A stretch of DNA of 64,000 bases, taken from positions 13,508 to 77,507 of IMG/VR virus record IMGVR_UViG_3300021255_003438; one strand, 5' to 3'. The notes under the pieces were generated by a model. The model saw only the letters and a list, made by a program, of their open reading frames with translations, did not search any database and was not told where the DNA came from. The DNA is from a virus (lineage: Duplodnaviria > Heunggongvirae > Uroviricota > Caudoviricetes). Positions 3,482 to 47,844 of the stretch are shown piece by piece (position 1 is the first letter of the stretch; every line of letters begins with the position of its first letter). The position numbers and the translations under genes were made by a program.

Positions 3482-3842
3482 AATAATGGTTTTTTAAAAT
3501 GGTAATTCTAATGGTGGGTTTTTTATCTATTAATTCCTTGGTTTTCAAATTGTATGTATACCTATTGGTTTCTTTCAATTCTTTGTCCAACATGAGCATG
3601 TTTTCTGCCGTTGGTTTGTCTAATATCCAATCTCCGTTGTCAACTATGAAAAGAATGTCATCTATTTTAAACTCTAAATCAAAATCTGAATGTATAAGGC
3701 AAAATTTATACCTAATTGACATTAGAGGACCGAAAGGAGTAGTTTCATCTGTTTTAGTAAATGTTGGATAAACCAATATCCAATTATATGACTGCCATTT
3801 TGATTTTAGTCTGCATAATTTATTTAATGGTATGTTTAACAT
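3465..3842 (-). CDS. Hypothetical protein
   Basis: 125 aa ORF. Confidence 0.4.
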   Translation of the reverse strand: MLNIPLNKLCRLKSKWQSYNWILVYPTFTKTDETTPFGPLMSIRYKFCLIHSDFDLEFKIDDILFIVDNGDWILDKPTAENMLMLDKELKETNRYTYNLKTKELIDKKPTIRITILKNHYYESNR

Positions 3843-13000: not shown

Positions 13001-13771
13001 TCAACCATTATTGATTGAACATTCAAATATTGTGACTAATGCATTTGGGTCTAGGTTCTTTATAAACCTATCATAAAACGTACTGACCCATTCAGTTTCA
13101 CTACCTTCAAAGGTATCTACGTCAACCCACCCATCTTTGTCAACAAAGGCATAGTTCCAATAAGAGGTGCTGTAGTTTACATACTCTTCTTCTGATTTGA
13201 ATTTACGGAAATATGCTTCTTTGTCTTTCATGGCGTTATAGATGGCCTCTTCTTCCGTATTTGAAGGTGTTTTACCTTCCATAACCATTTCCCAAGCAGC
13301 TTTATAGACACTTGCGTTTGTGTGTGTCATTGATTCCCAATCCACTTCACTTACATGAGCAGAATAGGCTTCCATACCATTTTTTAATAGCAATGGCATA
13401 GAGAAATTCCTTCCTACCCTACAAGTGTTGAAATGGGCATTAGGATTTTCAGTTGACAAGGCATCACCATCTTCATTGTAATACATTCCATCTGTAAGCT
13501 GTCTGTAATACTCGAATGAAGATTGTTTTTTAAGCTCTTCTAAGCGTGTTTTAAGCGTTTCTTGTGTGGTTGGTGGTATTCCTATCTTATCAGCTTCATC
13601 AAGCAACTTCTCAAGCGTTTTAATAGATGCTTGCTGATACTTCTTAGCCTCAAGATATTTGTACTTGACATATGGTTCGACTTCATAGTCTGCGCCATAT
13701 TTCTCCATCATTTTCTGTGGCTCTTCTCCTACGGCCATTACAGAAAAAAATCTACTATTCGTCTGTGCCAT
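13001..13771 (-). CDS. Hypothetical protein
   Basis: 256 aa ORF. Confidence 0.45.
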   Translation of the reverse strand: MAQTNSRFFSVMAVGEEPQKMMEKYGADYEVEPYVKYKYLEAKKYQQASIKTLEKLLDEADKIGIPPTTQETLKTRLEELKKQSSFEYYRQLTDGMYYNEDGDALSTENPNAHFNTCRVGRNFSMPLLLKNGMEAYSAHVSEVDWESMTHTNASVYKAAWEMVMEGKTPSNTEEEAIYNAMKDKEAYFRKFKSEEEYVNYSTSYWNYAFVDKDGWVDVDTFEGSETEWVSTFYDRFIKNLDPNALVTIFECSINNG

Positions 13772-32778: not shown

Positions 32779-32987
32779 TTATATAGTACTTGACCCAAAT
32801 AGTTAATCTACTATTGCGTACATATATTCTTCGCCATTTGCTTCTTTATCCATTATGGATTTAATCTCCTCTTTGCTTTTTTTAGCAGTTTTGTTCCAAT
32901 AAATAAAATGTTTCATACGTTATTAATATAAATTATTTTTTTTTTTTCTAAAATGTCTAATTGTATATAGTTACCTAAATTTTTGTG

Positions 32988-35286: not shown

Positions 35287-35398
35287 TCCATATATTTTTT
35301 TTTTATTAAACTTTTTGCAAATATATAAAAAAAAATTGGAAGATACAAATATATCTCCCAACTTTAATTTTGTTTAACAATTTGCCTATATGGATGTG

Positions 35399-35472
35399 TG
35401 AGCGTAGTGGGATTCGAACCCACGAACAACGGTTTTAGAGACCGCCCCAATAGACCACTCTAGCATACGCCC
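35399..35472 (-). tRNA. Candidate suppressor tRNA (anticodon CTA, would read UAG)
   Basis: Acceptor GGGCGTA/TACGCTC. T-arm GTGGG-TTCGAAT-CCCAC. Anticodon stem (G)CGGT/ACCG(T) with loop CTCTAAA (U33, CUA, A37). The D-arm is irregular. Own promoter at 35481-35511. Confidence 0.45.
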
Positions 35473-37520: not shown

Positions 37521-37686
37521 ATATTGTTAAGTTTTAGATTCACTTACCTAAAAAGATTGAGATTCTTGCAAGCTACATAGTAGTATCTCCTCATTTATGT
37601 CCAGCCCACCGATGAAGGCTTCTACTAGAACTGGTTACCTCCGATTCACACGTGCTTCGCTTTTCTACTATGTAAATCTCAATTTG

Positions 37687-37811
37687 CAGGGACTGATGGA
37701 CTCGAACCACCATTTTTCATTAACAGTTAAAGGCGTAATCTGTTCCGCAGTCGAGACTACGTTAATTCCTTAAATCGTAACAAACCACTCTTACCCTTGA
37801 GCTAAATCCCT
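37687..37811 (-). ncRNA. Long tRNA-like gene (~125 nt) with acceptor + D-arm + T-arm and ~50 extra nt
   Basis: Acceptor AGGGATT/AGTCCCT. D-arm GCTC-AAGGGTAA-GAGT. T-arm GGTGG-TTCGAGT-CCATC. Extra internal hairpins, including AACAG...CTGTT. Confidence 0.35.
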
Positions 37812-38612
37812 ATATAAATATACAAAAGACTGAGAATGTTGTCTTATGTTGATGCCGTCACACAACGGTTGGACGTTGCTCTTCACACGCTGCCTTACAG
37901 CAGACGTAGACACCATGCACGATGATTTTGCGAAAACCACCAAAAAACTTACTAGTTTAAACCTCTCGGTGCAGCATCATAGCTTTCAGTTCTTCGCCAA
38001 GCTCTTGCGGATTCATAGGATGCCTCCTATTAACTCAGGCGAGTACTTTTACACGCTCATTGAATTCCTTGCGAGTCCTCAATGTCTTCATATTGCAGAA
38101 GAATAAGTGCATTTTAGCTGCCTAGTGTCGCGCACTTTTGCTAATATAAAACCGTTTGAATCAACATTTCAAAATTTTATTGCCCATGACCTTGGAAGAC
38201 GAGGCGCGACCCATCGCATTCGTACCTTTTGAGTACGACCCACGAAATCGCCTTCCTACAAAGACTCACCACAAGTCCAATTGCTGTTATGCACTATCAG
38301 CCTTACGGTTCTCACGCCTTTCAGCGCAAGACTAGCGAATAACTAAACCCAACACGCCAACTGGTGATTATTGCATCGAGTTCAGCACAGTAATCTATTG
38401 TGTCACCACTCATCCAAAGACTCTTCGCCCTTGGAAACCTACACCTATGGTGTTACCCACGATGTAGACCGTACTATGCTCTTTTCAGTGAAATGCCTCA
38501 GTCAGCCAAGGCATCTGCAACGCTACTTGGTCAATTTCACGCCACATTTATCCTATCACTAGATTATCCTTAATGGCTACGAAAGCTAGCCAAAACCCCT
38601 TGCGAGATTCGT
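37800..38612 (-). ncRNA. GC-richer ~0.8 kb region with no ORFs: candidate large structured RNA or degenerate tRNA-like array
   Basis: No ORF over 90 codons on either strand. GC visibly higher than its flanks. Long-range complementarity (for example GGAAGACGAGGCG...CGCCTTCC, TTCGTAC...GTACGA). Embedded between tRNA genes on the transcribed strand. Confidence 0.3.
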
Positions 38613-38722
38613 TGGTAAGAAGAGATTTGCACTCTTGAAGCCTCCGAAGAGGCACATCAAGCACGAACTTGATGCCCATTTGTCTACATCAGTCTCTCGA
38701 CTGTTCTCCTCTGGTACTTACC
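38613..38722 (-). ncRNA. Long tRNA-like gene A (~110 nt), tandem paralog of 38760..38866
   Basis: Acceptor GGTAAGT/TCTTACC. T-arm AAGAG-TGCAAAT-CTCTT. Internal hairpins (GCATCAAG...CTTGATGTGC, GCCTC-TTCG-GAGGC). Conserved 5' blocks AGAGGAGAACA and GATGTAGACAAAT shared with its neighbour. Confidence 0.4.
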
Positions 38723-38759
38723 AAAAGGTGGTTTTTCAATTTGTCCACCACAAAATAGT

Positions 38760-38866
38760 TGGTAGAGCTAGATTTGCACTAGCGAAGCCACCTAAGTAGC
38801 ACAATACTTACCGTATTGCCGATTTGTCTACATCACCATCACTGGTGTTCTCCTCTCGTATCTACC
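38760..38866 (-). ncRNA. Long tRNA-like gene B (~107 nt), tandem paralog
   Basis: Acceptor GGTAGAT/CTCTACC. T-arm CTAG(A)-TGCAAAT-CTAG. Shares the 5' conserved blocks with gene A. Confidence 0.4.
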
Positions 38867-38875
38867 AAATGTAGT

Positions 38876-38954
38876 TGCGGAAGTGGGATTTGCACCCACG
38901 AACCTTACGGACTAGCTTATGAAACTAGCGAGATTGACTACTCCTCCATTCCGC
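38876..38954 (-). tRNA. tRNA (anticodon CAT) with an extended variable region
   Basis: Acceptor GCGGAAT/(C)TTCCGC. Anticodon stem CTAGT/GCTAG with loop TTCATAA. T-arm GTGGG-TGCAAAT-CCCAC. Confidence 0.5.
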
Positions 38955-39067
38955 TATGTTAAAAATAAGGAAACGTTTTTGTTTTTTCAAGAAACATTTA
39001 CATACTTAAGCTAGTTGCTGTGCGTTTCCACTATTCTATGAATTTTATTATCTTTTTTCCAACTGCG

Positions 39068-39099
39068 CAAAGATATAAAAAATATTTTTAATATCCAAA
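39068..39099 (-). promoter_or_regulatory. Bacteroidetes-type promoter upstream of the tRNA cluster unit
   Basis: caaagata at 39068-39075 and ccaaa at 39095-39099, spacer 19 nt. Confidence 0.55.
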
Positions 39100-39103
39100 T
39101 TTT

Positions 39104-39370
39104 TTACGAACTTTTTTCAGCTTTTTTGAAAAATTCTTTCAACTTGGCCAATTCTGCAAGTTGGAAAGTGTATTCATCAGCACTGATTATCAATTCATCT
39201 TTATCTTCTTCAATGTTAACAATCTGTGCCTTTAGCTTTTCAATAAGGCTTGCTTTTAATGCATCACGATACTTGACGCTAACTATATTAGTAGCTTCGC
39301 CTTTACTGTACCCAGCATCACATAAGTTCTTATACAACTCGTTTCTAAACTCTTTGTCTAATATTTTCAT
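39104..39370 (-). CDS. Hypothetical protein
   Basis: 88 aa. Promoter at 39393-39424. Confidence 0.4.
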   Translation of the reverse strand: MKILDKEFRNELYKNLCDAGYSKGEATNIVSVKYRDALKASLIEKLKAQIVNIEEDKDELIISADEYTFQLAELAKLKEFFKKAEKSS

Positions 39371-39392
39371 AACCGTTTTGTTTTTAACAGTG

Positions 39393-39424
39393 CAAAGATA
39401 TATAAAATTTTTGAAACTTCCAAA
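39393..39424 (-). promoter_or_regulatory. Bacteroidetes-type promoter
   Basis: caaagata at 39393-39400 and ccaaa at 39420-39424, spacer 19 nt. Confidence 0.55.
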
Positions 39425-39427
39425 TTT

Positions 39428-39676
39428 TTATGAACCTTTTTTCTTAAAAATCACAATTTCTTTTGATTTTTCCCATATCAGCCATCCAATCATCACAAAA
39501 AAGGCAAATATCATAAATAGTACCACAAACCAAGATAATGTACAACATATCAAAGCTGCAATAATGTCAGATAGCCTAATTTCATCAATTCGGAATTTTT
39601 CGCTTCTGTCACATCTTACTAGTAGAACTAATAGAAATGCAACAAAGCACCCAATAAGATAAATTGTCATAACCAT
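39428..39676 (-). CDS. Small membrane protein
   Basis: 82 aa with two TM helices. Confidence 0.4.
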   Translation of the reverse strand: MVMTIYLIGCFVAFLLVLLVRCDRSEKFRIDEIRLSDIIAALICCTLSWFVVLFMIFAFFVMIGWLIWEKSKEIVIFKKKGS

Positions 39677-39690
39677 TTGTCCATCAATTT

Positions 39691-40391
39691 GTTAAGTGGA
39701 GCTAGAGTGAAATAAATCTCATTAAACTCCGTACTTTTCCACATTTGTAAATATTTATATTAAAATCAATATTACTATGTCAAAAAAATATAACTTTAAT
39801 CGTAAACTAGGTACAGTTAAATGTGATAATTGCGGCAAAGAATTCCAAAAGCCCCAATCAGAAATTAACCGTAACGCTAAACTCAATAGAAATAACTACT
39901 GCTGTAGAGAATGTTCTGCTGAAGGGGTTAGAAAAACTAGATTGAATTTACCTTATAAACCAGCATCTAAAAAAATGTTAGAACATTTAAAAGATATTTG
40001 TGGAAATCATCGTGATGATTACACTCCATTCAGATATTCTTTAAGATGCGCTAAAAGACGTTTTAAAGACGTTAATGTAACTTTGGAAGACTTAAAAGAA
40101 ATATGGGAAAAACAAAATGGTGTTTGCCCATACACTGGTTTTAAACTAATTCTTCCTGAAAACTCTAATGTGAATAAAATCGATTTTTTTCATAGAGCAT
40201 CTTTAGATAGAATAGATTCTTCACTTGGTTACATTAAAGGTAACATTCAATTTATTTCTACACCTATTAACTTGATGAAACAAACACAAAGTGATGCAAG
40301 CGTTAAACAATTCCTAAAAGAAATTTCAAGTTATACATCAAAACTTTTATAAGTGTCTGATTTTCAAGTAGTTAAGTGGAGCTAGAGTGAA
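39691..40391 (+). mobile_element. Free-standing HNH homing endonuclease insertion flanked by a 21-bp direct repeat derived from a tRNA 3' end
   Basis: Identical gttaagtggagctagagtgaa at 39691-39711 and 40371-40391. The right copy continues into an intact T-arm (GAGTG-TTCGATT-CACTC). The only sizeable plus-strand gene in the window. Confidence 0.55.
39777..40352 (+). CDS. HNH homing endonuclease
   Basis: 191 aa. 'FFHRASLDRIDSSLGYIKGNIQFIS...N' matches the HNH_3 motif. N-terminal Cys pairs (CDNCGK...CCREC). Confidence 0.65.
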   Translation: MSKKYNFNRKLGTVKCDNCGKEFQKPQSEINRNAKLNRNNYCCRECSAEGVRKTRLNLPYKPASKKMLEHLKDICGNHRDDYTPFRYSLRCAKRRFKDVNVTLEDLKEIWEKQNGVCPYTGFKLILPENSNVNKIDFFHRASLDRIDSSLGYIKGNIQFISTPINLMKQTQSDASVKQFLKEISSYTSKLL

Positions 40392-40762
40392 TCGAACACT
40401 CGTCCATACTACCATCCCATAAGAGATTATACAAGCTTTAAAATTGGAAAGTTGACATTGCTGTCCTCACCGCCACCTCATTTTGCGAAAACGAGGAAAA
40501 CTAGGGGGATGACTAGAGTCATCAGTCCACCATTCGGTTTTAAGAAACCGACAAAAAGTTGCTAGGATGTTCTGTTCCTAAGAGCCTAGCCTCTCGGCTT
40601 ACATTACGCAGCTATTGCGTACTCGTAAGCAGGAGTATCAATATACTCGCCGTTTATTTTTTTCTTGCTATTTCTAGTGTATGCCCACTGCTTGTCTCTT
40701 ACCAAATGCATAGCTGTCTATACCATTGTAGCCCCATTGTGTCAAAGAACTCTTTCTTGTTG

Positions 40763-40839
40763 TCGAGACGGCAGGAGTTGAACCTGCGTGTGACCTACTA
40801 CACTTTCTACTCCTTATCAGGGAGAGGTGATACGTCTCG
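40763..40839 (-). ncRNA. Non-canonical tRNA-like gene (no clear D-arm, CTGATAA/GAT Ile-like loop, extra variable hairpin)
   Basis: Acceptor CGAGACG/CGTCTCG is perfect. CTCC-CTGATAA-GGAG hairpin. GTGT-AGTAGGTC-ACAC hairpin. T-arm GCAGG-TTCAACT-CCTGC. Confidence 0.4.
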
Positions 40840-40842
40840 CTG

Positions 40843-41052
40843 TTATAAAAATACTGTTTTAGCTTTATTTAAAACTTCATCTACCCTACCATCAAAAGTA
40901 AAACTATTACCATCTACTCTAATGCAAGTTTTTTCTTCACCTTCGTTGGTTGTGTAATCATAAATATTCTTTATGTCAGTTTTTCTAATCAATATTTTAT
41001 GACCATCTTGATTAGTTATTTCCAAAAACGCATTCGTATAATCGTAATTCAT
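40843..41052 (-). CDS. Hypothetical protein
   Basis: 69 aa ORF. Confidence 0.35.
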   Translation of the reverse strand: MNYDYTNAFLEITNQDGHKILIRKTDIKNIYDYTTNEGEEKTCIRVDGNSFTFDGRVDEVLNKAKTVFL

Positions 41053-41123
41053 ATTTTTATTTTTAAAAAACGGAAACGATTCAATTTAAAGTTGAACTAT
41101 TAGAAATTGCTGTATGTTTCCTT

Positions 41124-41191
41124 GGTGCTTGCGATAGGATTTGAACCTACTGTACCCCACTATAAGATGGCGTGTGTCTGCCAATATATCA
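41124..41191 (-). ncRNA. tRNA-like element with encoded CCA. Internal structure unresolved.
   Basis: T-arm GTAGG-TTCAAAT-CCTAT. 3' end ...CGCAAGC-A-CCA. 5' GCTTGAG pairs 6/7. No clean anticodon stem. Confidence 0.3.
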
Positions 41192-41390
41192 CCCCTCAAG
41201 CATGTTCGCACTCTGTACTCTTTCAAGCCATCGAGCACTTGTCTTGCATTATCGTAGTTAAGACCAATATACGGCATTCTTGACCTAAAGTATGCTTACG
41301 ATGGAGTTAAATGTGTGTCCTCTGTTTTAAGTCCGCGCAATTTCCTCATAGCTCCCAAGAGACTTATGCGCTTGACTGATACTCAAGTAG

Positions 41391-41466
41391 TTGGAGGTAA
41401 CGGATTCGAACCGATGACCTTCTGCTTGTAAGGCAGACGCTGCTGAACCAACTGAGCTAACCTCCA
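41391..41466 (-). tRNA. tRNA-Val (anticodon TAC)
   Basis: Acceptor TGGAGGT/ACCTCCA. Anticodon stem TCTGC/GCAGA with loop CTTACAA. T-loop TTCGAAT. Confidence 0.6.
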
Positions 41467-41678
41467 ATTTGGGAGCGTTTGTTTTACGTGTGACTCGCCC
41501 TTTCAACAAGACCTGAGGTTTCCGAAGATTCCACTATTACAGTTCTCTTGTTCCACAATCCCTATTGTCTGTTTACTTGTCCATCAGAAACTTATATCCG
41601 AAAACTCCACAAACAGCACCAACAATAAATGTAAGCATAATGATTTTTTTTATTAGTTAGACATTTGAATTAACAGTG

Positions 41679-41710
41679 CAAAGATATATAAAATATTTGA
41701 AACTTCCAAA
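41679..41710 (-). promoter_or_regulatory. Bacteroidetes-type promoter
   Basis: caaagata at 41679-41686 and ccaaa at 41706-41710, spacer 19 nt. Confidence 0.55.
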
Positions 41711-41729
41711 TTTTATTCCTTAAAAAATG

Positions 41730-42395
41730 TTACCATTTGTCTATATTGTCAGCTACCCATTGTTTTGCCGCTTTCTTTTCGTATTCCTCTTGGATTGCGT
41801 CAGTAGCATCAAACTCATCTTCCAATTCGCTTTCGTCAAACTGAACATGCAACCCATATTTTTTCTTACGAGGTTTCTTGCAAGTTTCTTGTTTGCAAAT
41901 CACTGCATTCTTGCCATCACCCCAACGGTATTGTAGCCACCCTTCGTATTCTCCAGTGTCAAATAAATATCCTTTTGGAATTTCATCATCACCTCTAAAG
42001 AAATCATCAAGCATTTCCAACCCCATGCGTACAGTTCCACGACATATTTTCATGACATTGCCATGATATTTGTAAATGCCATCACCACCTGTTTTTAATA
42101 TCTTGTTTTTTTCAAAATCAAGAACCAAATACCCCCAAAAGCGGCTTTCAATTTTAAACTCCCAAATTTCTTCATGCCTTTTGGAACGCAAATTGGGAAC
42201 TTTATATGGCCTTGGCGTGTCTGCGTAAACCTCTTCTATAAGTTTAACCTCTTCTTTCCATTCAGCTTCGGTATTAAATTCTGTCTCAGAATGAGAATAT
42301 TCTTTCAACTGATACAAATCTTGCATATCCCTAGCTGTAGGGGATTTACCCCACATGGAAAAAATCACCATATATCTTTTTGTATGCTTTTTCAT
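41730..42395 (-). CDS. Hypothetical protein
   Basis: 221 aa ORF. Confidence 0.45.
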   Translation of the reverse strand: MKKHTKRYMVIFSMWGKSPTARDMQDLYQLKEYSHSETEFNTEAEWKEEVKLIEEVYADTPRPYKVPNLRSKRHEEIWEFKIESRFWGYLVLDFEKNKILKTGGDGIYKYHGNVMKICRGTVRMGLEMLDDFFRGDDEIPKGYLFDTGEYEGWLQYRWGDGKNAVICKQETCKKPRKKKYGLHVQFDESELEDEFDATDAIQEEYEKKAAKQWVADNIDKW

Positions 42396-43009
42396 GATTC
42401 TTTTCTTTTTCTAAAAGATGTCTTCAAATCAAAACCGTGAGCTAATATTTTACCTTCGTTGGTTTGTGTTTTCACACCCTCTGGAGAACCAAATAAATCA
42501 CAGAAACAGTCATGTTTAAACTCATTTATTTTTTTCTCATCATATTTGTTTTCATATAAAAAAGTAACGATGTTATTCATTACCTTTTCCAAATCACTAA
42601 TGAGGTGGTCTTCAATTCCGTTTCCAATCAAATCCCAAGGTCTAATTTCATAGCCTATGGAAGTGTTATTCCTATTTGTTAAATAACTTATGTCATAGTA
42701 GCCACCTTGAAACTCTATCCTATACACCTTTCTAATACCTTCCTCTTGGTATTTTTTCTTATTGTTTAAAGAACTTTCGCTTTTGTAGTAGTAAAAGCCC
42801 AAAGGAGAGAGACATTTCAATTTCCTTCCACCTTTACCTACACGGCTAACAACTCTTTCATCACGAACAATTTCTTCTCCTTTTTGAAAGGTAATGGTGT
42901 TGCTATATATAAATTGAGCATTAATTGCGGGGTTTTCTACTTTCTGTACAATAACCTCACATTTACTGAACAATATCTTCCTTTTTTCTCTTACCTTATT
43001 GTCTTTCAT
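42392..43009 (-). CDS. Hypothetical protein, dispersed paralog of 24057..24701
   Basis: 205 aa with a conserved C-terminus HGFDLKTSFRKRKES. Confidence 0.45.
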   Translation of the reverse strand: MKDNKVREKRKILFSKCEVIVQKVENPAINAQFIYSNTITFQKGEEIVRDERVVSRVGKGGRKLKCLSPLGFYYYKSESSLNNKKKYQEEGIRKVYRIEFQGGYYDISYLTNRNNTSIGYEIRPWDLIGNGIEDHLISDLEKVMNNIVTFLYENKYDEKKINEFKHDCFCDLFGSPEGVKTQTNEGKILAHGFDLKTSFRKRKES

Positions 43010-43218
43010 GACGCGAAACTTTCAAACCAATTTTTAATAAGTTTTACAGGCCAAAAGAACATAAGGAAAACTATAAGCAGAACAGCCATAGACTCTTCAA
43101 CCTCGTCAGCGTCTTTCTCATATTCGTACTCTGGTTTATATTCATCATTCCACCACACTAGTGCTAGAACCAAGCCTATTACAAAATAAGCTATTAATAT
43201 AACTTGACCTACACTCAT
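43006..43218 (-). CDS. Small membrane protein. Start adjusted to avoid the tRNA overlap.
   Basis: The ORF track gives 43006..43266, but its first 16 codons overlap the tRNA 3' end. The Met at 43218 (MSVGQVIL) fits. Confidence 0.35.
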   Translation of the reverse strand: MSVGQVILIAYFVIGLVLALVWWNDEYKPEYEYEKDADEVEESMAVLLIVFLMFFWPVKLIKNWFESFAS

Positions 43219-44361: not shown

Positions 44362-44445
44362 GGCATTACCTTTAATGTCCTCCGTGTTGGAGTCGAACCA
44401 ACGTTGCGTTTCCGCACAGATTAAGAGTCTGTTGCATGACCTCTC
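44362..44445 (-). ncRNA. tRNA-like element with a Lys-type anticodon arm (ACAGA-CTCTTAA-TCTGT, CTT). Acceptor pairing not found.
   Basis: Perfect T-arm GTTGG-TTCGACT-CCAAC and anticodon hairpin. No complementary 5' acceptor strand. Confidence 0.3.
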
Positions 44446-44460
44446 TGCCAGGTGCATCAT

Positions 44461-45306
44461 TTATTGTATGTCCTTCTTTCTATATGGTAAACCGTAGTAT
44501 TTACACCATTTTCTTACAGCGTTGTCTGATACCCCATAAGTCCTTCCTATTGCACTGAAATTGCTCTCTTGCAGCAGCATACTAAGTTCTTCCTTACTTG
44601 GTCTCTCAACTTTTCTCTGAAGTTTCTTATTACATTCATCACATCTAGTACTATGCGAATCTATATGTTTACCACAATTAATGCACACGCCATAATATCT
44701 AACTCTTGGATGTGGCATTATACTGTTTGTTTTTAATTCACCATTGACCATCTTCTTATAACATTCATCGCAAAGTCCTGTCTGAGTCTTGTTTATTTCC
44801 TTTCCACAGCATTTACAATAATGTTTCTTATCTACACCATTGTGATGATTATTAGCGCCACAATAGTTATCTGTTTGTGAATGGCAATTGGGGCATAGTA
44901 TTTGTAAATTTTCTAGCCTATTGTCTGTATTATCCCCATTTATATGGTGTAGTTGTAAACTTATTTGTTCACCATTCCAATGAATTATACCGCATTTCTC
45001 GCATTTATATTCTTTTAGTCCACTAGAAAATAGTTTCCATTTAAGTCTATCAGCCTTAATATATGAGTTAGTAGTAAGGTAATCTTCTACTTTTTTCTCG
45101 TTGTGTTTAACACCACTATTGGACTTTCCTTTCATTGTGAAATGACTAGTATCAAGCTCTAACTCATTTATGTATTTTTTGACATATCTGTAGTTACCGC
45201 CTTGTGGCTTCCATCCAATCTTTCTACATACATCAGCGTATGTGTGGCTCTCTTCAACGAACCTTTTAAAATCCTCGTTACTAATTCTTTTCATATGCAA
45301 AATCAT
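44461..45306 (-). CDS. HNH homing endonuclease-like protein with a C-terminal HTH
   Basis: 281 aa. 'LQLHHINGDNTDNRLENLQILCPNCH' is the HNH motif. Several CxxC pairs. Confidence 0.6.
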   Translation of the reverse strand: MILHMKRISNEDFKRFVEESHTYADVCRKIGWKPQGGNYRYVKKYINELELDTSHFTMKGKSNSGVKHNEKKVEDYLTTNSYIKADRLKWKLFSSGLKEYKCEKCGIIHWNGEQISLQLHHINGDNTDNRLENLQILCPNCHSQTDNYCGANNHHNGVDKKHYCKCCGKEINKTQTGLCDECYKKMVNGELKTNSIMPHPRVRYYGVCINCGKHIDSHSTRCDECNKKLQRKVERPSKEELSMLLQESNFSAIGRTYGVSDNAVRKWCKYYGLPYRKKDIQ

Positions 45307-45370
45307 TTCCTATATAAATAAATAGTTAACGACTTGCAAAAATCAAGTCTTAGTTCGATTTTTTTTTTTG

Positions 45371-45442
45371 TGCCCCCAGAGAATTTTGCAATCTCGACCC
45401 CATGTTTAAGAGACACGTGCTCTACTTCTGAGCTATGGAAGC
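45371..45442 (-). tRNA. tRNA-Lys (anticodon CTT)
   Basis: Acceptor GCTTCCA/TGGGGGC (two G-U pairs). D-arm GCTC-AGAAGTA-GAGC. Anticodon stem CGTGT/ACATG with loop CTCTTAA. T-loop-like TTGCAAAAT. Confidence 0.5.
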
Positions 45443-45452
45443 ATATGAACTG

Positions 45453-45527
45453 TACGCCTGGTGGGATTCGAACCCACGTAGTCACAGATTAAAAGTCTGG
45501 TGCATAAAGCCACTCTGCCACAAGCGC
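45453..45527 (-). tRNA. tRNA-Lys-like (anticodon TTT)
   Basis: Acceptor GCGCTTG/CAGGCGT (two G-U pairs). Anticodon stem (C)CAGA/TCTG(T) with loop CTTTTAA. T-arm GTGGG-TTCGAAT-CCCAC. Confidence 0.45.
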
Positions 45528-45535
45528 AAATATTG

Positions 45536-45607
45536 TGCGCCCAGAGGATTCTGCCACCTCGACTCCTAGTTTAAAAGACTAGTGCTCTACTTCTGAGCTA
45601 TGAGCGC
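45536..45607 (-). tRNA. tRNA-Lys (anticodon TTT)
   Basis: Acceptor GCGCTCA/TGGGCGC. D-arm GCTC-AGAAGTA-GAGC. Anticodon stem CTAGT/ACTAG with loop CTTTTAA. Confidence 0.55.
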
Positions 45608-45609
45608 AA

Positions 45610-45680
45610 TTTCTACTATTTTACCTATAGTTAAAAGAGGCCGCAGCTCTACCGTTAAGCTATAGGAGCAATTATCTATA
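45610..45680 (-). ncRNA. tRNA 5'-fragment-like element (acceptor + D-arm, no T-arm)
   Basis: The sense strand reads GCTCCTA-TA-GCTT-AACGGTA-GAGC..., then closes on itself (CCTATAG...CTATAGG) without a T-arm. Confidence 0.3.
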
Positions 45681-47043: not shown

Positions 47044-47844
47044 TTAAATATTTTGCAAATTGTTTAATATATGTTCTTTCCAATAATTTCTTCTAGTGCT
47101 GTTTTTATTTTTTGACTTAAATGTGTCTAACTGACTATCACAATTAGGACATATCATCCGCAAATTTTCTCTTTTGTTGTTAGAAGCATCACCATCAATA
47201 TGGTCTAGTACAAATACTAACGGTTTACCATTATGTTCTGGTTTACCTCCACATATTGGGCATATACCACCTTGTTCCTTTAAGAATTCTTTTTTAAAAG
47301 CTTTTGGTGTATAATTTCCTCTACAGTATTTATTGTTATTTTCTAGAAAATCTTTATAAGATTCTCTATGCCTATGTTCTGCAACACATTTTTCAGAACA
47401 ATATTTAGCATCTTTTACTGTAGTTTCAAAATATTTTCCACAAACAACACATTTTTTTGTATATTTAATTAATTTCTTTTCTTTTTTAATGTGTTCTTTT
47501 TTCGTTTTCTTTAACTTACTAGCAATACCATCATAAACAGATTTATCCCTATGTTCATTGTTATACTTCGCAGCACAAGAACGGCAACAAAATTCCTTAC
47601 CCCATTTATTAGTAATTTCTTTTCCGCATTGCTTACAATATTTAATTATTTTTTTCTTTTTATAAGTATCTAAATCAAATCCAACTGACGTTGCAATTTC
47701 TTTCAAATATTCAGAACCTTGTTTATTATCGCTTATTCCGAAATATTCATGTGCTTGATTTTTGCTAGTAAAACTATCAAATTTATCAAAGACCTCTTTC
47801 TTTTTTTCTTCTGTACTAATGTCAATAATCTTTCTTTTCCTCAT
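47044..47844 (-). CDS. HNH homing endonuclease-like protein
   Basis: 266 aa. 'VLDHIDGDASNNKRENLRMICPNCDSQ' is the HNH motif. Many CxxC pairs. Confidence 0.6.
   Translation of the reverse strand: MRKRKIIDISTEEKKKEVFDKFDSFTSKNQAHEYFGISDNKQGSEYLKEIATSVGFDLDTYKKKKIIKYCKQCGKEITNKWGKEFCCRSCAAKYNNEHRDKSVYDGIASKLKKTKKEHIKKEKKLIKYTKKCVVCGKYFETTVKDAKYCSEKCVAEHRHRESYKDFLENNNKYCRGNYTPKAFKKEFLKEQGGICPICGGKPEHNGKPLVFVLDHIDGDASNNKRENLRMICPNCDSQLDTFKSKNKNSTRRNYWKEHILNNLQNI

Follow-up and report, generated by a model that had tools for sequence, protein, structure and literature searches.

A candidate homing cassette with a His-less HNH-fold protein gene at the 3' end of a phage tmRNA gene

The stretch of DNA analysed here, called the window, comprises 64,000 nt of the IMG/VR record IMGVR_UViG_3300021255_003438 (Caudoviricetes; positions 13,508 to 77,507 of that record). 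Within it, an insert at 39712-40370 lies between the two copies of a direct repeat at the 3' end of a minus-strand transfer-messenger RNA (tmRNA) gene, and consists of a 65-nt leader, a plus-strand open reading frame (ORF) of 191 codons and an 18-nt spacer (Table 1). The insert is 659 bp long and has a GC content of 28.7%, compared with 36% for the window. Only 2 of the 38 ORFs of at least 150 aa in the window are on the plus strand, the other 36 being on the minus strand, and the second of the two, at 39126-39662, is antisense to two minus-strand genes; an initial annotation of this DNA had taken the 191-codon ORF for the only sizeable plus-strand gene, and it is indeed the sole credible one. 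We propose, with a probability of roughly 0.6, that the insert and one copy of the repeat form a small mobile cassette for a site-specific endonuclease of homing type, dedicated to tmRNA genes and of non-canonical HNH fold.

The repeat, GTTAAGTGGAGCTAGAGTGAA, is perfect over 21 bp and occurs at both borders as originally described, with exactly 2 copies in the window against a chance expectation of 0 for a 21-mer repeat (100 shuffles), and no further copy was found in the window at up to 3 mismatches. Both copies are present, 680 bp apart, in 6 independent metagenome assemblies with an identical ORF, and the repeat is therefore not an assembly artefact. The initial annotation held that it duplicates the 3' end of a tRNA, whereas the gene concerned is a tmRNA gene, which was recognised at full length on the minus strand by both ARAGORN and Rfam (40374/40376-40735). 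The match to Rfam RF00023 scores 57.9 bits against a gathering score of 47 and spans model positions 1-374, and the tag given by ARAGORN is GEYIDTPAYEYAIAA. The acceptor strands pair as GGGGCUA/UAGCUCC, including a G3-U pair, and CCA is only partly encoded. On the minus strand the repeat reads TT-CACTC-TAGCTCC-A-C-TTAAC, that is the last 2 nt of the T-loop, the 3' strand of the T-stem, the 3' strand of the acceptor, the discriminator A, a C and 5 nt of downstream DNA, and it thus contains the last 16 nt of the tmRNA gene and the 5 nt that follow. The right copy continues into a complete T-arm (GAGTG-TTCGATT-CACTC), a detail already recognised in the initial annotation, and is the functional 3' end of the intact tmRNA gene; the left copy is an orphan fragment of a tmRNA end without a 5' partner. 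The insertion had been thought to duplicate or split a tRNA gene: an end was duplicated, but the gene is that of a tmRNA and is intact and unsplit.

Homology searches with the 191-aa protein retrieved 540 relatives and then 1,231. We examined a phage set of 90 loci, made up of the window, 80 IMG/VR loci and 9 phage or bacterial loci from earlier searches (2 of them cyanobacterial chromosomes), together with a further 80 loci from cellular genomes, 66 of which are near-full-length matches; L-numbers denote the loci on phage, bacterial and cellular contigs that were compared with the window. The window DNA itself found no close relative in the phage collection, the only match being the 3' half of the endonuclease gene in crAss-like phages, and a scan for the exact 21-mer returned 0 hits in JGI metagenome contigs and only L010 in IMG/VR.

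The cassette is present in the window and in L003-L009 and absent from L010 and L184-L192. The IMG/VR locus L010, which is ~94% identical to the window, is collinear with window positions 37684-39711 and 40364-43199 and carries one copy of the 21-mer at the joint and no ORF. Nine further empty loci (L184-L192) were found via homologs of the 82-aa protein encoded to the left of the cassette, with 4 protein variants of this neighbour on 17 contigs, some of ~400 kb; here a single tmRNA 3' end abuts the 82-aa gene and there is no trace of the ORF. Presence and absence are therefore precise at one site among close relatives, as in a free-standing homing endonuclease gene (HEG), and the mobile insertion foreseen by the initial annotation, with a single repeat copy at the empty site in relatives, is seen in L010 as well as in L184-L192.

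The short contig L009 encodes an identical 191-aa protein, and its cassette is identical to that of the window at 656/659 positions (99.5%), far above the 68-86% identity of the flanks. Its left flank is identical to that of the empty locus L188 at 74/74 positions and to the window at 54/79, and its part of the tmRNA gene at 159/159 and 143/166 positions, respectively. The outermost base of the left copy in L009 is local (TTAAT, as in the L188 lineage), whereas the right copy keeps the TTAAC of the cassette; the right crossover lies between 40371 and 40407 of the window, in the final ~36 bp of the tmRNA gene, and the exchange tract towards the tmRNA does not exceed 36 bp. A near-identical cassette between diverged flanks indicates, at the level of sequence comparison, that one cassette entered the same site in two lineages, a recent horizontal insertion that is consistent with homing. 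We also considered a loss in L010 alone, since distant relatives carry the cassette, and this explanation is weakened by the nine other empty close relatives and by the transfer into L009. In addition, the HEG-free relatives display two alleles of the tRNA-like domain of the tmRNA, GAGTG..CACTC-TAGCTCC and GAGGG..CCCTC-TATCTCC, the 5' acceptor strand being changed to match in each case (L184-L192 compared with window 40371-40735); L188 and L189 have common flanks and differ from each other in the tmRNA allele, and the left repeat of L014 bears the GAGGG-type base.

More distant relatives (L014, L016-18 and L024-26, at 70-83% nucleotide identity) have the same convergent layout of ORF and tmRNA gene. 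Their right junction, running from the stop codon through 18 nt and 5 nt into the tmRNA end, can be aligned in the window, L014, L016, L024 and L025, and their left copies vary in length and match the tmRNA sequence of each lineage (Table 1), with repeat lengths of 6 to 26 nt among the relatives. The stem of the left remnant in L044 is internally complementary, unlike the stem of the adjacent functional tmRNA (GAGAG/CTCTC), and the remnant is therefore the relic of a once-functional allele. The occurrence of the same layout with diverged repeats in distant relatives suggests that the arrangement is old in the wider phage group and recent in the window lineage, which fits repeated gain and loss. 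According to the initial annotation, diverged repeats in related genomes would speak against a recent mobile insertion; such repeats do occur in the distant L014, L016 and L025, but arrival in the window lineage was recent. Around the same-strand homologs L001 and L002 no direct repeats were found.

Table 1. Features of the cassette locus in the window, and left repeat copies in related loci.
Feature	Coordinates	Strand	Remarks
82-aa membrane-like neighbour gene	39428..39676	-	directly after the tmRNA gene in HEG-free relatives
Left repeat copy	39691..39711	-	orphan duplicate of the tmRNA 3' end, joined straight to the native downstream flank
Cassette leader	39712..39776	+	alignable in L014, L016, L024, L025
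191-aa protein gene	39777..40352	+	zinc ribbon and HNH-fold domain
Spacer, stop codon to right repeat	40353..40370	+	18 nt; homologous in all convergent relatives
Right repeat copy	40371..40391	-	functional tmRNA 3' end and 5 nt
Intact tmRNA gene	40374..40735	-	ARAGORN; Rfam RF00023
Left copy in L014			20 bp, 2 mismatches
Left copy in L024			18 bp; own, different tmRNA type
Left copy in L016			11/12 bp
Left copy in L025			6 bp
Left remnant in L044			complete T-arm and acceptor strand, GGCGG-TTCGACT-CCGCC-CAAGTCC

In 24 IMG/VR loci and in the crAss-like cr6_1 and cr128_1, a group I intron on the opposite strand abuts or overlaps the 3' end of the ORF. Along the intron strand the order is the tmRNA body up to the T-stem and TT, the ribozyme core, the antisense ORF, a short tail ending in G, and CGAnT followed by the other T-stem half, the acceptor and AC. 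The two halves of the T-stem are complementary across 812-891 nt in the 24 loci, with 7 different stem sequences, and after in-silico splicing ARAGORN recognised a tmRNA with a normal tag (...AA) in 8 of the 24 constructs. The insertion point, between TT and CGAnT, corresponds to T-loop position 3 in the numbering of PMC11915505, in which tmRNA introns at this position are reported only from Bacteroidia and endonuclease genes are reported in 36 of 883 tmRNA introns, all of them LAGLIDADG and in sense orientation (PMC11915505). The ORF of the window, unlike that of these relatives, is not within a self-splicing intron. No group I intron was found by Rfam between 38500 and 42000 of the window at E <= 1, and a degenerate one inside the insert was considered and rejected, as there is no Rfam match and the non-coding parts amount to just 65 and 18 nt. 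The left repeat of the window, 65 nt 5' of the ATG, is located where the 24 intron-bearing loci have their 3' exon and starts 3 nt 3' of the splice point of these relatives. In L020 and L098, the ORF is on the same strand as the tmRNA gene and just downstream of it, the tmRNA gene having an ORF-less group I intron at the presumed target.

The crAss-like loci showed further RNA features. Matches to RAGATH-7-assoc, RAGATH-9, RAGATH-20 and RAGATH-22 flank the endonuclease gene in L012 (cr6_1; coordinates 2185-2400 and 3519-3640) and in L046-L075. In cr6_1 the split T-arm is immediately preceded on its 5' side by the RAGATH-7-assoc match, and a tmRNA-like 5' end, GGGGCATTATGGTTTTGAC, starts ~180 nt past the 3' exon; in 21 IMG/VR loci a tmRNA-like 5' end lies ~75 nt from the ORF on the opposite strand. 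It is possible that these motifs belong to two-piece or permuted tmRNAs of phages. In the crAss-like phage cr56_1 (L011 2788-3369) the annotated endonuclease coding sequence has an in-frame stop when read with the standard bacterial code, and the window encodes a suppressor tRNA with the anticodon CTA at 35398-35472; each of these hints at recoding of stop codons in such phages.

The association with tmRNA genes recurs throughout the loci examined. Of the 80 IMG/VR loci, 66 were automatically assigned an adjacent tmRNA gene, tmRNA intron or tmRNA-type terminus (5' or 3'), and most of the remaining 14 have a tmRNA-type feature on inspection. Among the 66 near-full-length cellular matches, 50 have an ARAGORN tmRNA within 1.5 kb, whose end is in nearly all cases 50-130 nt upstream and on the same strand, and 7 others have a matching group I intron instead; a random gene would be found so near the single ssrA of a genome roughly once in a thousand. 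The tmRNA gene beside the ORF is convergent in L014, L016-18, L024-26 and L044, and in L001, L002, L021 and L023 it is directly upstream on the same strand. Homologs linked to ssrA occur in the cyanobacterial genera Rivularia, Calothrix, Scytonema, Oscillatoria and Laspinema, among others. In a rough neighbour-joining tree of the family, the same-strand cyanobacterial and phage forms are basal, and the convergent clade of the window is placed beside L020, L027, L028, L038 and L044. The cyanobacterial homologs (L021, L023 and L109-L168) are ~330 aa long and have an N-terminal extension; in L021 and L023 the gene order is atpG, ssrA, the homolog and a GNAT acetyltransferase gene, and adjacency to ssrA was confirmed for the other cyanobacterial loci, an unusually stable place for a selfish gene.

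The 191-aa protein consists of two modules, an N-terminal zinc ribbon (CxxC...CxxxC) and a C-terminal domain with the pattern W..Q.G.CPYTG...SLDRIDS..GY..GN.QF.S..IN..K. The latter has the beta-beta-alpha-metal fold of HNH (His-Me finger) endonucleases, with a central Asn and a putative metal-binding Asn/His on the helix, and we assign the protein to HNH because of this fold and of its matches to PHROG families labelled endonuclease, endonuclease VII and HNH. The protein matched no Pfam or NCBIfam model, AP2 included, and none of the HNH models (among them Pfam HNH, HNH_3 and HNH_5) even at E <= 1, and a sequence search of the PDB returned weak zinc-finger matches to the N-terminal ribbon and 0 to the catalytic domain. 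Despite the 'endonuclease VII' PHROG match, the Endo VII / F-CphI motif CX2-4C...DHDH...R...CX2C-N is absent from the family alignments. Where canonical enzymes have the general-base His (LDHID), 37 diverse members invariably have an Arg (L-D144-R145-I-D), and N156, N165 and K168 are invariant and, judged by their pattern, spaced as in the HNN/HNK variants. The loop between the strands contains an invariant Tyr (Tyr152), which may correspond to the Tyr of PacI. HNH activity without the His is known from PacI, where a Tyr of the loop performs its role (PMC5714182, PMC3384342), and by this analogy nuclease activity of the 191-aa protein is plausible. Compared with R.PacI and the PacI-like His-Me fingers (group 20, PMC5714182), to which it has no detectable sequence similarity, the 191-aa protein has a single invariant Cys, C117, in its C-terminal domain instead of the residues for two zinc sites, possesses an N-terminal zinc ribbon, and would serve homing and not restriction. 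The designation as an HNH homing endonuclease with an HNH_3/AP2 fold thus holds as regards the HNH fold and the mobile pattern, but not as regards HNH_3/AP2, the protein being His-less and without a Pfam match. By hhalign, only the N-terminal zinc ribbon could be aligned to the two canonical HNH proteins of the window, with a probability of 92.7% for the 266-aa one (47044-47844). The module CxxCGKE...(Y/F)C(C/S)RxC is common to residues 7-57 of the 191-aa protein and residues 61-101 of the 266-aa protein, which suggests that the zinc ribbon may be a DNA-binding module exchanged among the endonuclease genes of this phage.

The leader has the consensus AT(T/A)AA..TTAAA.TCCGT.TTT.TCCACA..TATTTATAT among the relatives and probably holds a promoter or operator of the ORF. 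A sigma-70-like match at 39738-39766, TCCACA-17-TAAAAT, is not above chance. The motif T(T/C)CCAC(A) is found 30-40 nt 5' of the ATG of the family ORF in all layouts (39738-39743 in the window) and is similar to the 3' terminus of the tmRNA, CTCCAC(CA). It might act as a -35 element or, as described for I-TevI, as a target-mimicking operator.

Taken together, these data can be accommodated in the following model of a homing cassette. The cassette would insert immediately beyond the 3' end of the tmRNA gene, in opposite orientation to it, bringing its own version of the last 16 nt and the 5 nt beyond, and with this spare terminus the tmRNA gene would stay whole. The original 3' end of the resident would be displaced to the far side, where it would form the left repeat, positionally a vestigial 3' exon. 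We infer that the protein breaks a HEG-free tmRNA gene within its last ~36 bp, in the T-arm and acceptor region, and that the break is repaired from a co-infecting cassette-bearing phage, the homology arms being the tmRNA body on one side and the ~20-bp left repeat on the other. The left copy would be the natural left arm because it is the only sequence on that side shared with HEG-free phages, and it would let the cassette enter phages with different downstream genes. Such arms would account for the recipient sequence at the outer edge of the left copy in L009, for the inner border inherited with the cassette in the window and L014, and for the differing downstream genes together with the very short exchange on the tmRNA side. 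A displaced native 3' end that serves as a homology arm is a better interpretation of the repeat than a target-site duplication arising from the insertion, and the best-supported account of the window layout is that of an intron-less version, in which a duplicated 3' terminus, and not a ribozyme, keeps the host RNA functional. On the origin of the first duplication we can offer a speculation, namely a single illegitimate junction of two alleles, one intron-bearing and joined just past its ORF, the other intron-less and broken just beyond TTAAC.

Several observations weigh against the homing cassette. Homologous repair does not account for the first duplication. The tmRNA gene of the window matches the empty site exactly, both within the repeat and outside it, and the proposed mechanism therefore does not account for the escape of the carrier from cleavage either. 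No co-conversion tract is seen between the window and L010, the nearest differences being at 39616 and 40430. The canonical general-base His is absent throughout the family, in which no His is invariant at any position, and the fixed location in cyanobacteria across many genera resembles that of a retained cellular gene.

The last two points also speak for a protein that is no nuclease or has ceased to be one, and would be a His-less HNH-fold factor binding the tmRNA or its gene in a regulatory or processing role, with the patchiness arising from ordinary recombination and from deletion between the 21-bp repeats. The main support for such a factor comes from the place downstream of ssrA held in dozens of cyanobacterial genera, to which the invariant Arg at the catalytic His position and the resemblance of the conserved TCCAC motif 5' of the ORF to the tmRNA 3' end can be added, and some His-Me groups have lost activity and kept DNA binding (PMC5714182). 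We nevertheless consider it unlikely, since two lineages, each with an empty counterpart, carry a 99.5%-identical cassette between flanks that are 14-32% diverged, the distribution among close relatives is patchy, the ORF lies repeatedly within group I introns at one T-loop position, and the lack of the His does not prevent activity in PacI (PMC5714182).

A transposition-like event, in which staggered cuts 21 nt apart, insertion and fill-in would have duplicated the target site, appears improbable to a greater degree. It would explain the perfect direct repeat around a short insert and the presence of exactly one copy in the empty site, but the length of the repeat and both of its borders vary among relatives (21, ~20, 18, 12 and 6 bp, and a full T-arm in L044), 21 bp exceeds the usual duplications, there is no transposase, and we found no terminal inverted repeats at the ends of the insert, their similarity being at the level of shuffled sequence. 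All convergent relatives moreover have a homologous right junction, the left copy is found where the intron-bearing relatives have their 3' exon, and the cassette is located exclusively at the tmRNA end. Finally, although duplication of a tmRNA 3' end from the T-loop is the classic signature of tmRNA-targeting islands (PMC11915505), it is very improbable that the repeats are the attL and attR of a decayed integrative element brought in by a tyrosine integrase, as the 659-bp insert has one HNH-fold ORF and no integrase, none was called beside a family member in the related loci with listed genes, the insert resides in a phage genome, and the intron-embedded relatives favour homing over site-specific recombination.

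When the proposed homing cassette is compared with known systems, it is like the free-standing phage HEGs (Seg/Mob, including T4 SegB in the tRNA region) in being a small gene with its own leader, placed between conserved genes beside a conserved RNA gene, in its presence or absence at one site among close relatives and in its movement between lineages, and it differs in its tmRNA target, in a protein that is neither GIY-YIG nor canonical HNH, and in being known from sequence. To our knowledge, a duplicate of the target end carried along with the insertion is not a described feature of Seg/Mob elements. The loci L020 and L098 and several bacterial loci resemble collaborative homing, as in the F-CphI/psbA intron pair of cyanophage S-PM2 and the T4 mobE/nrdB intron pair, a layout in which the intron protects the carrier from the neighbouring free-standing endonuclease (PMC6083498, PMC2790892), whereas the window has no intron and its protein lacks the CX2-4C...DHDH...CX2C Endo VII motif of the F-CphI family. 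The ORFs of the intron-bearing relatives share their location with the tmRNA T-loop group I introns of PMC11915505 but have another fold, an antisense orientation and phage tmRNA genes as hosts, and in the window the ribozyme was lost or never present. Islands and prophages at ssrA likewise restore the tmRNA 3' end with a terminus of their own and leave a displaced partial copy on the far side, but the cassette has no integrase, measures 0.66 kb, lies in a phage genome and would most likely move by break repair. We found no description of a tmRNA-linked free-standing endonuclease, of this protein family or of tmRNA introns in crAss-like or other phages in the literature searched, a search that was incomplete and is no proof of absence.

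The initial annotation had also listed two further HNH genes in the tRNA island, and both are supported by PHROG, the ORF at 44461-45306 matching PHROG 10822 at 2e-52 and the minus-strand ORF at 47044-47844 matching PHROG 1271 at 2e-25, with weak matches to Pfam HNH_3. The first of them and ~1.2 kb around it (window 44377-45669) replace 198 bp of the 99%-identical L004 (12430-12688), a stretch with intact genes for tRNA-Ser(AGA), tRNA-Lys(UUU) and tRNA-Lys(CUU). At this insertion the window retains just a 26-nt 3' fragment of the Ser gene and a ~35-nt 5' fragment of the Lys(CUU) gene where L004 is intact, and the insertion of the HNH gene at 44461-45306 therefore also leaves stubs of RNA genes, which lends support in passing to the earlier idea that endonuclease genes remodel the RNA-gene island. 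A 191-bp segment at window 32785-32975 is also absent from L004 (1030-1050). A GOLLD-like RNA is conserved in the tRNA island of this phage group (window 37827-38256 on the minus strand, L010 4016-4449, L014 1736-2170 and L016 1675-2101), with scores of 73-90 bits and E-values of ~1e-18 to 1e-22, below the Rfam gathering score of 150, and a 125-nt tRNA-like match adjoins it in the window at 37687-37811. Just 5' of the tmRNA gene, a tRNA-like Rfam match of 32 bits on the minus strand (40763-40839), which is not an ARAGORN call, is located where relatives have a tRNA-Ile(GAT) gene and may be a decayed copy of it.

Beyond the window, we put forward more tentatively that the family comprises undescribed His-less, PacI-like HNH homing endonucleases dedicated to tmRNA genes and ranging from cyanobacteria to crAss-like and ~400-kb phages. 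Encoded antisense inside the mostly ORF-less T-loop introns or just downstream of them, they may provide these introns with their mobility function, and in the phage of the window the ribozyme would have been replaced by a duplicated 3' terminus. If active, the 191-aa protein would add a seventh catalytic flavour to the homing endonucleases, namely an HNH fold devoid of the His, with a long and highly conserved natural target in the tmRNA T-arm and acceptor, and would explain the spread of tmRNA introns, which are widespread though only ~4% of them bear a recognisable endonuclease gene (PMC11915505). If inactive, its strict linkage to ssrA in cyanobacteria points to an unknown tmRNA-associated factor. 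Phage tmRNA genes, including the intron-split ones of crAss-like phages, escape standard annotation, and ARAGORN calls the intron-split genes only after in-silico splicing. The series of layouts, from free-standing on the same strand, through a position beside an ORF-less intron and an antisense position in the intron, to the intron-less form with a duplicated exon, can test models of the formation and decay of mobile introns. If the proposed mechanism is true, the cassette would show that an endonuclease gene has a second means, independent of RNA catalysis, of lodging silently at an essential RNA gene; it would also be a visible transition form linking free-standing endonuclease genes to intron-borne ones.

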